A stretch of 64,000 nt of DNA from Escherichia phage vB_Eco_NicPhage. This document shows, piece after piece, positions 31,551-34,332 of this stretch. The stretch lies in the sequence record OY726582. One strand, given 5' to 3'. Position 1 is the first letter of the stretch. Every line of letters starts with the position of its first letter. The position numbers and the translations under genes are program-made. The notes below the pieces were generated by a model. The model saw only the letters and a program-made list of their open reading frames with translations. It had not been told where the DNA came from and searched no databases.

Positions 31551-31739
31551 TTAATCCACAATCGGGAGCAAAGTACGATAAACTTCAAAATTAGGACCTT
31601 TTTCGTACTTATCGAAATTGTCCATAAAAATATGATAGGAATCGTTATTAGGAAAATCTAATATAATCTGAGAGCAAGAGGTGGAAACATCTCCACCATC
31701 CTTCTTAGCTACAATAACTGTTTCTAAATAAGCTTTCAT
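31551..31739 (-). CDS. hypothetical small protein
   Basis: 62 aa from the ATG that overlaps the ligase stop (TAATG). Confidence 0.4.
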   Translation of the reverse strand: MKAYLETVIVAKKDGGDVSTSCSQIILDFPNNDSYHIFMDNFDKYEKGPNFEVYRTLLPIVD

Positions 31740-33232
31740 TATAAACCTGTCTGGGACCACGGTCCAAATACGTCTTCAAACGAATCCGCTTCTGTTTTAT
31801 CAAAACGGAACCCTTTAATAATTGGGAGGAAAATACCTACAGTGCCTTCACGTCCTTTAGAATGAACCCAACCATTACATTCACAATCAGCAATACGTCC
31901 AATCAATTTACCTTCACGAGCTTCGGCCATTAATCGTTCACGGTCCAAATCATGTCGCTCATCTAAAGGAATAAGAACCTTTACACCATCAACTGTTTTA
32001 TGAGTTGTATCTTTAAACCCTGAACCACAATCGGTTGTAATACGACGACAACGTGATACGAGTTCGACACCACCTAATTTGTTAGGGTCTTTAGAGTGTT
32101 CATAGTATCCTACAACTTCTAAAGCGATATCAATAACTTCTTTAAATTTAATTAGGTTCTTAGAACGTTTGTTTTCCCAATATGAATCACGGTTTTTAAG
32201 GATAATACCTTCAAGACCTTGGTCAACATATTTTTTATAAACCACTTTAGCTTCGTCAAGATTACGAACTAACTGATTTTCAATTGGCTCAATTCGTTTA
32301 AAGCCTTCAGCCATATTTTCAAGAGCAGCAAAACGAACATCGTATTTCTGACCTTTAATTTTGCCATCAGAATAGACTTCATCTAAAGGAACATAGTCCC
32401 AGGCTTGAAGAACCATACCTTCAGCTTCTTTAGGAGAAATAGTCCCTTGAAGAGATTTATTTGCTAAACCGTTTGAAGTGCTACGGTCCGCAACTTGTAC
32501 TTCTTCGGATTCTTCATTATCACCAAATAAGAACGACAGGTCATTTCCTGAGCTCACAGCCTTTTTAATATCAAATGAATGGTAAACTAATTCACCGTCG
32601 ATTAAAACCCCATTATGGTGTCTTTCACGAGCTTCTTTAGTCATTTCCATTAGTTCATCCGCTAATAGAGTAAGACCATGATATTCGTTGCCGGCACGAG
32701 AAAAGAATTGAACACCATCATCGCGAACTTCAGCGAAACAACGAGCACCATCTGCTTTTAATTGGGCAAATGCGGGCCATTTAATATTTTTAGTAATCAA
32801 TTTCTCGTCATATGCAGATGCTAACATCTGTGGTTGCAATTGAATAAGTCCAGGCCACACCTTATTCGCGATAGACACTGAAGCACCTACTTCAAGGTCG
32901 CGCATCATTACACGACGAAGGACTTCTACATCATCAGGTTTACCATCAGCGATATAACCCATGAGCTCTTTAATTGCAGCATTACCAGTGAGTTTACGAG
33001 TGGCTAATGTGAACTCAATAAAATCCAACATGTCATCTAATTCAAGAAGACCATACGCTTGAGACCTTTCACCTGGTCCTGGCCATTTCTTAATATAATA
33101 CTGGATACCACGTGCATATGTTAAACGATACACACGTTCAAGTAATTTGTTGTCCTTATTTTTCTTAAGGATTTCCTGTTTTGTTTTAGTAGAACCGATC
33201 GCAGCTATTTGGTTTAAAATATCTAAAATCAT
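31739..33232 (-). CDS. 30: ATP-dependent DNA ligase gp30
   Basis: 497-aa ORF with adenylation motif I KADG (QLKADGARCF); T4 gp30-like length and position. Confidence 0.93.
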   Translation of the reverse strand: MILDILNQIAAIGSTKTKQEILKKNKDNKLLERVYRLTYARGIQYYIKKWPGPGERSQAYGLLELDDMLDFIEFTLATRKLTGNAAIKELMGYIADGKPDDVEVLRRVMMRDLEVGASVSIANKVWPGLIQLQPQMLASAYDEKLITKNIKWPAFAQLKADGARCFAEVRDDGVQFFSRAGNEYHGLTLLADELMEMTKEARERHHNGVLIDGELVYHSFDIKKAVSSGNDLSFLFGDNEESEEVQVADRSTSNGLANKSLQGTISPKEAEGMVLQAWDYVPLDEVYSDGKIKGQKYDVRFAALENMAEGFKRIEPIENQLVRNLDEAKVVYKKYVDQGLEGIILKNRDSYWENKRSKNLIKFKEVIDIALEVVGYYEHSKDPNKLGGVELVSRCRRITTDCGSGFKDTTHKTVDGVKVLIPLDERHDLDRERLMAEAREGKLIGRIADCECNGWVHSKGREGTVGIFLPIIKGFRFDKTEADSFEDVFGPWSQTGL

Positions 33233-33498
33233 TTGATGTCCTCGATTTTGGTTACGGTTCTATTATAAGCCACTTCATCTAGAAGCGATTTCAGCGTTTT
33301 CTGATAAGTTGTAATCCATTTACCGAGTCCTTCAACATAGTATTCTGAAATGTAGATGAACCCTTGTTCAACACACTCTTTAAATATTTCTGCGTCTTTT
33401 ACTGAACGAAACAATGGTCAGTCTCGAAAGAACATGTTAACGTGACCGTAGTCACGTGTGGTATTTTTGCCATCTGTAATATCATGAACTACAAACAT
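33229..33498 (-). pseudogene. small early ORF interrupted by an in-frame TGA (opal) codon
   Basis: ATG at 33498, 26 codons, TGA at 33418-33420, then 62 further sense codons in the same frame to 33229; the downstream part has no ATG (track start is TTG). Confidence 0.45.
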
Positions 33499-33507
33499 AA
33501 TTAACCC

Positions 33508-34332
33508 TTAACAATTTATAGACCAAGTCCATTTAGACGAATCTAAAGGAAAGTTTTGAATCGTCCACCACGGCTGCATATCAGTTGGTCCTGGGGTTCG
33601 CCAGGTATATGGAGTACGTGTTGTCGAGGGGCCACCAATTTGATTGGGCCATGCACCTGGACTTGTTGCACCAGATTCTTTAAGCAAATCCGCCAATCGT
33701 TTTAAAAGGTCTTCACGATCTGAATCTGAATTATTCTTAGGCAGAACCAAACGAGATTCAATATCATCCCACGTGTGTACACGTTGTGCAGTACGAGGAA
33801 TGGCATCACGTTCACCACGAGCCAACCAATAAATCGGTACATTAAGAATTTCTGCCGCATGGTCACAATGATGAGCTAAATCGTCAACGTAACAAATTAC
33901 GTTATATTTTGTTTTAGCTAGTTCGAATAATTGTTCCTTTGAAGAATCATGACCACACATCATTACTTCAGAGAAAGCGCCTGGGAACAAAGCATTCAAA
34001 TTAAATTGTCTATTCAATCGAGCATCAATTGAATCACCTAGCGCCGTCACGGCTACAAAATTATAGTCTTCTTTTAGTTTATTGATAACTCGAAGAGCAT
34101 CAGAATAAGGCGCTAAGTAACGAATAAAATCAGAGCTATTATATTTTTCTATTAATTGTTTACCAAGGTTATCGTCGGTATTGAACAGTTTACCAGGAGA
34201 AATAAATTTTTCGTCCTGAATCATTTTTAAAATATGTTCTAATGGAAGGTTATATTTTTGGGCAAAATAAGGAAGTCCAGATTGCCAGCTTAAACATACA
34301 CCATCAATATCAGTCAAAATAGTAGGCTTCAT
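33508..34332 (-). CDS. HAD-superfamily hydrolase-like protein (T4 30.2-like position)
   Basis: 274-aa ORF; N-terminal ILTDIDGV (HAD motif I) and YVDDLAHH (motif IV-like); unusual Trp/Pro-rich C-terminal tail. Confidence 0.5.
   Translation of the reverse strand: MKPTILTDIDGVCLSWQSGLPYFAQKYNLPLEHILKMIQDEKFISPGKLFNTDDNLGKQLIEKYNSSDFIRYLAPYSDALRVINKLKEDYNFVAVTALGDSIDARLNRQFNLNALFPGAFSEVMMCGHDSSKEQLFELAKTKYNVICYVDDLAHHCDHAAEILNVPIYWLARGERDAIPRTAQRVHTWDDIESRLVLPKNNSDSDREDLLKRLADLLKESGATSPGAWPNQIGGPSTTRTPYTWRTPGPTDMQPWWTIQNFPLDSSKWTWSINC

Follow-up and report, generated by a model that had tools for sequence, protein, structure and literature searches.

Gene 30.1 of the T-even phages T4 and RB69 lies between gene 30.2 and gene 30, is 270 nt long and overlaps the start of gene 30 by the four nucleotides ATGA. 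Its product belongs to the family DUF3045, for which our literature search found no paper by name. In T4, transposon insertions were obtained at 21 of 21 TA sites in 30.1, which was classed as 'Non-essential', while the essential gene 30 was disrupted at 7 of 115 TA sites and classed as 'Essential'; these data describe an orthologue about 55% identical to the protein considered here (a figure inferred from T2 30.1) in one host (HIDEN-SEQ, bioRxiv 10.1101/2025.11.20.689424, supplementary file 7). Knock-down of T4 30.1 by CRISPRi-ART was scored as 'Semi-Fit' (PMC11879866 supplement). Across Mosigvirus, the 30.1 protein is almost invariant despite synonymous differences between the genes, a clear sign of purifying selection, and taken together with the 'Semi-Fit' score this suggests that the loss of 30.1 may cost something in nature.

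The reading of UGA by the translation machinery of Escherichia coli has also been described in some detail. Read-through of UGA arises from the competition between Trp-tRNA-Trp and release factor RF2, and in K-12 reporters it rises from about 2% at 37 °C to about 4% at 25 °C (PMC10570021). Native UGA read-through products have been seen with the K-12 RF2 allele and were absent with the B-type allele (PMC5373646), and as such the leakage depends on the RF2 allele of the host, the temperature and the level of tRNA-Trp (PMC10570021, PMC5373646). According to the citation of Poole et al. (1995) in PMC9841425, UGA followed by C is the weakest termination signal of E. coli. In phage Q-beta, low-frequency reading of UGA by host tRNA-Trp yields A1, a longer protein in the same frame as the coat; there the stop is conserved, a complete functional protein precedes the extension and the long form is required. 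Another comparison is offered by opal mutants of the T-even phages obtained in the laboratory and by accessory phage genes that have spontaneously become nonsense pseudogenes; in these, a TGG to TGA transition leads to a truncated product.

The locus described here can be compared with each of these systems. It shares the position, the ATGA overlap and the length of 30.1 in T4 and RB69, and its protein is 98% identical to RB69 gp30.1 and 55% identical to T2 gp30.1, but codon 27 is TGA, in place of the sense codon present in all other members examined. As in laboratory opal mutants, a TGG to TGA transition would truncate the product and any residual phenotype would be set by host suppression and RF2 activity; those mutants, however, were selected, whereas this one was found in a deposited genome, and no conditional-lethal phenotype is expected because 30.1 is non-essential. 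Any suppression would involve the same contest between Trp-tRNA-Trp and RF2 that operates at nudL and pheL of K-12 (PMC10570021, PMC5373646), although leakage at those genes extends complete proteins past their natural stops and here it would rescue an internal nonsense codon. In contrast to Q-beta, the stop occurs in this genome alone and splits a single domain.

The window, that is, the whole stretch of 64,000 nucleotides analysed (Escherichia phage vB_Eco_NicPhage, sequence record OY726582), comes from an RB69-like T-even phage of the genus Mosigvirus, as judged by comparison with phage records. A query of 451 nt around the TGA matched 149 phage records at 95% identity or more, the best of them at 99.8% identity, equivalent to one mismatch, and vB_EcoM_WFK is 99.1% identical to the window along 22 kb. 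On the minus strand, an ORF runs from the ATG at 33498-33496 through 26 sense codons (MFVVHDITDGKNTTRDYGHVNMFFRD) to a TGA that is followed by C at 33417. Beyond this stop, 62 further sense codons follow in frame (PLFRSVKDAEIFKECVEQ...KIEDIK; PLFRSVKD...EDIK) before a natural TGA at 33231-33229. The preliminary description had reported the short ORF with its good ribosome-binding site, the open frame behind it and the UGA-C context, and all of these are borne out by the sequence. It had also stated that the downstream part contains no ATG; a scan of the frame from the premature stop to 33229 confirmed this, but an alternative start does exist, an in-frame TTG one codon past the stop that opens a 61-aa ORF in the program-made ORF list. 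The interrupted frame lies between 30.2 and the gene for the ATP-dependent DNA ligase, gene 30, and shares their strand, which identifies it as gene 30.1. In the nine annotations compared (APCEc01, phage 55, SA79RD, RB69, WFK, KAW3E185, JK45, G53 and JK42), 30.1 is one unbroken CDS of 270 nt encoding 89 aa. The features of the region are collected in Table 1.

Table 1. Features in and around the interrupted gene 30.1, with positions in the window
Feature	Position	Strand	Remarks	Basis
Gene 30.2	33508..34332	-	274 aa, PHROG 420, intact, directly upstream of 30.1	Sequence, PHROG
Shine-Dalgarno-like AAGGG of 30.1	33505..33509	-	6 nt before the ATG	Sequence; RBS annotation in phage 55
Gene 30.1 (DUF3045 / PHROG 2054)	33229..33498	-	Broken at codon 27	Pfam, PHROG, relatives' annotation
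N-terminal 26-codon ORF	33421..33498	-	Predicted to hold b1, b2 and a1	Sequence; structural model
Premature opal stop TGA	33418..33420	-	Codon 27	Alignment, codon table, probes
In-frame TTG	33412..33414	-	Only conceivable re-initiation codon; weak GAG before it	Sequence, ORF list
Rest of the 30.1 frame	33229..33417	-	62 sense codons and natural TGA; predicted to hold a2-a4 and b3-b4	Structural model
Putative middle promoter GCTT-N15-TATAAT	33262..33286	-	In the 3' part of 30.1	Annotated in SA79RD
ATGA overlap	33229..33232	-	Natural 30.1 stop and gene 30 start codon	Sequence
Gene 30, ATP-dependent DNA ligase	31739..33232	-	497 aa, intact, directly downstream of 30.1	Sequence, gene mapping

Profile searches assign the two pieces to one protein. 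When they are joined with Trp at codon 27, the product matches the Pfam family DUF3045 (PF11243) with an E-value of 1.4e-26 and 92.8 bits against a cut-off of 27, residues 1-84 aligning with profile positions 1-83 of 88, and it matches PHROG 2054, a family of unknown function, with an E-value of 1.3e-40. Taken separately, the N-terminal piece covers profile positions 1-26 and the C-terminal piece positions 31-83. This end-to-end match of the joined product argues that the pieces form one domain and are not a chance open frame. Members of the family have an uninterrupted frame of about 81-92 codons, which here is interrupted by the TGA at codon 27, and as the frame is unbroken in the homologues and in the relatives that were fetched, the locus is best described as a disrupted copy of a family member. 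Among the 28 homologues, 67-92 aa in length, that a search of the protein database yielded, there is no C-terminal-fragment ORF; the only one of 67 aa is an N-terminal piece on a contig of 631 nt.

The position of the stop within the domain can be considered in the light of a structural model. An AlphaFold model built on a database protein that is 98% identical (P0001; mean pLDDT 88.7) predicts two strands and one helix before the stop (b1 3-8, b2 11-16 and a1 20-26) and three helices and two strands after it (a2 28-33, a3 37-45, b3 47-55, b4 60-66 and a4 69-88), with residue 27 placed at the kink between helices a1 and a2. Since the stop would divide the four predicted strands two and two, neither fragment is expected to fold alone, and each would probably be inactive by itself. 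The most conserved motifs of the family (MFVVH, D16, G18, H19, V20, N21 and F23) all lie in the N-terminal piece. Column 27, on the other hand, is among the most variable, with W, R, C, N, Y, K, A, Q and others, and distant homologues carry an insertion of 5 aa there. Because this column is so variable, a protein made by read-through of the stop would probably be active, which keeps a reading of low-level expression alive.

Comparison with relatives traces the stop to one base. Alignment with APCEc01, phage 55 and SA79RD places TGG opposite the TGA of the window, and the rest of the gene equals that of APCEc01; the difference is a private G to A transition at 33418, the third codon position (C to T on the plus strand, where the window has T). 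The preliminary description had singled out the T at the first codon position as the base to be checked, which was mistaken, as the relatives differ at the third. Its suggested alignment with orthologues did reveal a sense codon at the site: codon 27 is TGG (Trp) at 15 of 17 Mosigvirus loci, CGG (Arg) at the other two, namely RB69 and one Logan assembly, and a stop at none, and one cluster representative has Cys. No orthologue among the relatives examined terminates at codon 27. At 9 of the 17 loci, including those of APCEc01, WFK and JK42, the stop is the single mismatch to the 270 nt of the window, and thus the rest of the gene, identical base for base to several relatives, has undergone no secondary decay. 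Along the 3,058 nt from gene 30.3 to gene 30, the A at 33418 is the only base private to the window in comparison with 17 relatives.

Searches for a second genome with the same stop were negative. A 41-nt megablast probe was centred on the A with flanks of 20 nt; as these flanks are shorter than the seed word of 28, the TGA probe cannot seed on sequences that carry TGG. It matched none of 50,697 phage records, while the corresponding TGG control probe matched 99 phage records, 67 of them at 100% identity. Exact TGA patterns had no match among the contigs of IMG/VR, the JGI metagenomes or the GTDB genomes, and when the variable base was left as N, a single IMG/VR contig matched, with TGG at the site. 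The exact ligase of the window is encoded on 12 contigs listed in the gene-position index of public assemblies, and the 30.2 protein of the window is indexed in 49 collection blocks, from which 24 contigs were read; at all 12 loci listed for contigs with an identical ligase or an identical 30.2 protein, an intact 89-aa DUF3045 gene adjoins. No independent assembly with the same TGA was therefore found in the phage records or in the viral, metagenome and bacterial-genome collections. One disabling substitution, no further decay and restriction to a single lineage together make up the pattern of a recent nonsense pseudogene.

These observations are best explained by a real, recent and strain-private TGG to TGA nonsense mutation in a non-essential 30.1, subject to background leakage only, and we consider this reading probable. 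An artefact is less likely, and a designed read-through or a split gene very unlikely. The suggestion in the preliminary description that the gene is freshly inactivated is thereby supported, given that relatives have a sense codon at the site and the remaining gene is identical to that of several of them. The proposed course of events begins with a recent single-base transition that would have turned the Trp codon 27 into TGA. Translation would start at the normal ATG (33498), and host RF2 would release the chain after 26 residues, leaving a peptide that corresponds to the first beta-hairpin and a single helix from a compact domain predicted to have four strands and four helices. As the peptide would hold only these elements, 30.1 would be effectively knocked out.

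The phage would tolerate such a knock-out if 30.1 is dispensable in laboratory conditions, as the transposon data from T4 suggest, and if the essential ligase is provided for separately. The ligase gene has a ribosome-binding site and probably also a middle promoter of its own; the former is a GAGG at 33243-33240, which ends 7 nt before the ATG. The putative promoter motif in the 3' part of 30.1 is likened to a T4 middle promoter in the annotation of SA79RD and is invariant in comparison with three relatives; ligase transcripts could arise from it whether or not 30.1 is translated. With both elements in place, the ligase need not starve when 30.1 is untranslated. At the upstream end, the AAGGG of 30.1 overlaps the TAA stop of gene 30.2.

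It is plausible that some full-length protein with the ancestral Trp is made, in a small quantity that varies with the host. Host Trp-tRNA-Trp could read the UGA-C, and from the figures for K-12 we infer a level of leakage at codon 27 of a few percent of ribosomes at most. Such leakage would restore the exact ancestral protein, with Trp at codon 27, and would be a generic process that depends on the host strain, with no evolved property of the locus behind it. This is all that survives of the proposal that the gene is expressed as short and read-through isoforms: it is not supported as a designed feature, and only an unselected background leakage at UGA-C is plausible.

The best of the alternatives is that the TGA is an artefact of sequencing, base calling or consensus building, or that the consensus has captured a variant from a minority or from laboratory passage; the phage population would then carry TGG and 30.1 would be intact. 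The DNA of T-even phages carries modified cytosines, and C to T changes on modified DNA are an error class of some sequencing platforms. The case for an artefact is that one base is changed, that it is unmatched in all public relatives and is the only private base in 3 kb, and that on the plus strand the change is C to T. Against it, an internal stop occurs only in 30.1 among the genes mapped (68 with the annotation of APCEc01 and about 70 with that of WFK), so that the other genes, about 70 in all, are unbroken and free of frameshifts. A 1-nt gap relative to WFK made uvsY a candidate for a second broken gene, which was rejected, since the gap is an intergenic indel located before the point where UvsY truly starts, and the CDS annotated in WFK is over-extended. 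Over the 44,044 nt aligned to six close relatives, 74 substitutions are private to the window, of which 51 are synonymous, 21 nonsynonymous, one nonsense and one noncoding; because 69% of this private spectrum is synonymous, it points to real divergence under selection and not to random error. Furthermore, a single substitution error in a high-coverage consensus is rare. The clean gene set and the substitution spectrum lower the probability of an artefact, and the change is presumably carried by the phage stock itself and not a product of base calling. We hold the artefact to be unlikely, though well ahead of the readings that follow.

If the TGA is real, 30.1 might be more than a casualty of mutation and could be a host-conditional, host-tuned natural hypomorph, maybe retained by selection for low dosage. 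Hosts with weak RF2 of the K-12 type or with high tRNA-Trp would then yield a few percent of wild-type protein, and hosts with efficient RF2 would yield none. We regard this as highly improbable. A further proposal holds that the UGA-C has been selected as an opal read-through site in the style of the Q-beta coat and A1 proteins, kept for the production of a 26-aa peptide and a little full-length gp30.1. Several points are in its favour, namely that UGA-C is held to be the weakest E. coli signal (Poole et al. 1995, via the citation in PMC9841425), that near-cognate tRNA-Trp would put in the ancestral Trp, that many residues are tolerated at position 27, and that TGAC is avoided at natural gene ends, where it is the rarest stop signal of the window, closing 1 of 65 genes. 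The coding sequence downstream of the stop is indeed conserved among relatives, but the stop itself is conserved in none, by which the proposal is essentially refuted. The stop also lies inside a single domain and not between a core and an extension. No stimulatory context or structure was found apart from the C at +4: the 121 nt that surround and follow the stop do not fold better than shuffled sequences do (z = +0.28), and the only Rfam match has an E-value of 4.9, far under its gathering score. As the flanks are identical to those of relatives that carry TGG, nothing has co-evolved with the stop. TGA, moreover, is an ordinary terminator in this genome. The read-through isoforms of the preliminary description are thus not supported as a designed feature, and we consider selected read-through very unlikely.

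An equally doubtful proposal is that the gene has been split, with ribosomes re-initiating at the in-frame UUG 3 nt past the UGA so that fragments of 26 aa and 61 aa form a two-piece protein. Termination-reinitiation across such short distances occurs in bacteria, which gives the proposal a precedent. The TTG lies one codon past the stop and is preceded, at a distance of 8 nt, by a weak GAG, and the break would fall at a variable helix-helix kink where distant homologues tolerate the insertion of 5 aa. This organisation, however, is seen in no relative, the 61-aa product is absent from the gene-position index of public assemblies, and the homologues include no ORF for a C-terminal fragment. 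The TTG and its context are older than the stop and, being already present in relatives that carry TGG, are not adaptations to it. Initiation at a UUG that has a poor Shine-Dalgarno sequence is weak, and efficient fragment complementation of so small a domain is unlikely.

Reassignment of TGA to Trp, or insertion of selenocysteine at codon 27, could be entertained because the TGA aligns with Trp in close relatives and with Cys in one cluster representative, a pattern that elsewhere can flag recoding or selenoproteins, but its probability is negligible: TGA closes 14 of the 65 genes in the window, the natural stop of 30.1 included, from which the standard code follows, the window holds no tRNA gene, no SECIS-like hairpin or Rfam match was found around the stop, and the close relatives all have E. 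coli or Shigella as host, in which the standard code applies. TGA usage, folding, Rfam, tRNA and flank results together leave programmed read-through, selenocysteine and reassignment alike unsupported.

A recent nonsense mutation in 30.1 would be an ordinary case, which raises no new translation question and has its main consequence in annotation. The locus should be labelled as 30.1 (DUF3045) broken by a nonsense codon, either in the form of a pseudogene or as a site for sequence verification, and neither as two small ORFs nor as a recoding site. For the biology of the T-even phages, it would represent a naturally occurring knock-out, or a hypomorph, of a gene that is conserved but has no known function, in agreement with the dispensability of 30.1 in the T4 transposon data, and the isolate could be used as a ready-made mutant for the study of DUF3045.

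Within Mosigvirus, most of the amino-acid variation in gp30.1, the DUF3045 protein encoded between gene 30.2 and the ligase gene 30, is held by residues 26-29 (D26E, W27R, W27C, P28S, L29V and L29S), and the only changes seen elsewhere in the protein are A36T and W61R. Distant homologues carry an insertion of five amino acids at the same spot, and this part of gp30.1 is a tolerant surface kink. The nonsense codon of the phage, a TGA at codon 27 that is private to it, sits inside this mutable spot.

Two genome-wide screens of the T4 gene are in mild disagreement. Transposon saturation classed T4 30.1 as non-essential, with 21/21 sites disrupted (bioRxiv 10.1101/2025.11.20.689424), whereas in CRISPRi-ART it is one of five function-unknown genes scored 'Semi-Fit', with the essential ligase gene 30 scored as 'Not Fit' (PMC11879866).

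Across the whole window, the 65 mapped genes end in TAA (45 genes), TGA (14) or TAG (6). When the base after the stop is included, TGAC occurs once and TAAC twice among these genes, a scarcity that would fit with C being avoided as the base following the stop. Two further elements lie within gene 30.1 (see table). The GCTT-N15-TATAAT motif, a putative element likened to a T4 middle promoter in the annotation of the relative SA79RD, is without variation in the aligned relatives. The terminator-like hairpin is probably due to chance, since one was observed and 0.3 were expected from shuffled sequences.

Features in and around gene 30.1 and elsewhere in the window
Feature	Position	Strand	Location or basis
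Variable spot, codons 26-30 of gene 30.1	33409-33423		gp30.1 amino-acid changes within Mosigvirus
GCTT-N15-TATAAT motif	33262-33286	minus	within 3' portion of 30.1; ligase ATG is 30 nt downstream
Terminator-like hairpin, then T-run	33440-33457	plus	antisense to 30.1
1-nt indel relative to phage WFK	~21631	minus	between gene 25 (22098-21700) and uvsY (~21619-21207)
hoc region	~17499-16359		gene after prohead-protease inhibitor; Hoc/PKD-domain head outer capsid protein
Two WFK insertions missing from window	~49300-48975 and ~46012-45977		comparison with WFK

Comparison with the close relative WFK also revealed differences elsewhere. An apparent frameshift in uvsY was rejected, as the 1-nt indel has this appearance solely through a spurious 27-codon 5' extension in the WFK uvsY annotation, and the UvsY of the window (MKLEDLQEEL...) is intact. 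The hoc gene aligns only partially with that of WFK; annotated hoc lengths of 495, 1035, 1131 and 1419 nt among relatives span a wide range, which suggests variation in domain number. Furthermore, the window lacks two ORFs that WFK carries as insertions. One, a 'group I intron endonuclease' ORF, lies on the upstream side of nrdA; the other splits nrdB, whose halves are contiguous in the window, as in the relative APCEc01. These nrdA and nrdB differences reflect homing-endonuclease or intron elements that some close Mosigvirus relatives carry and others lack.
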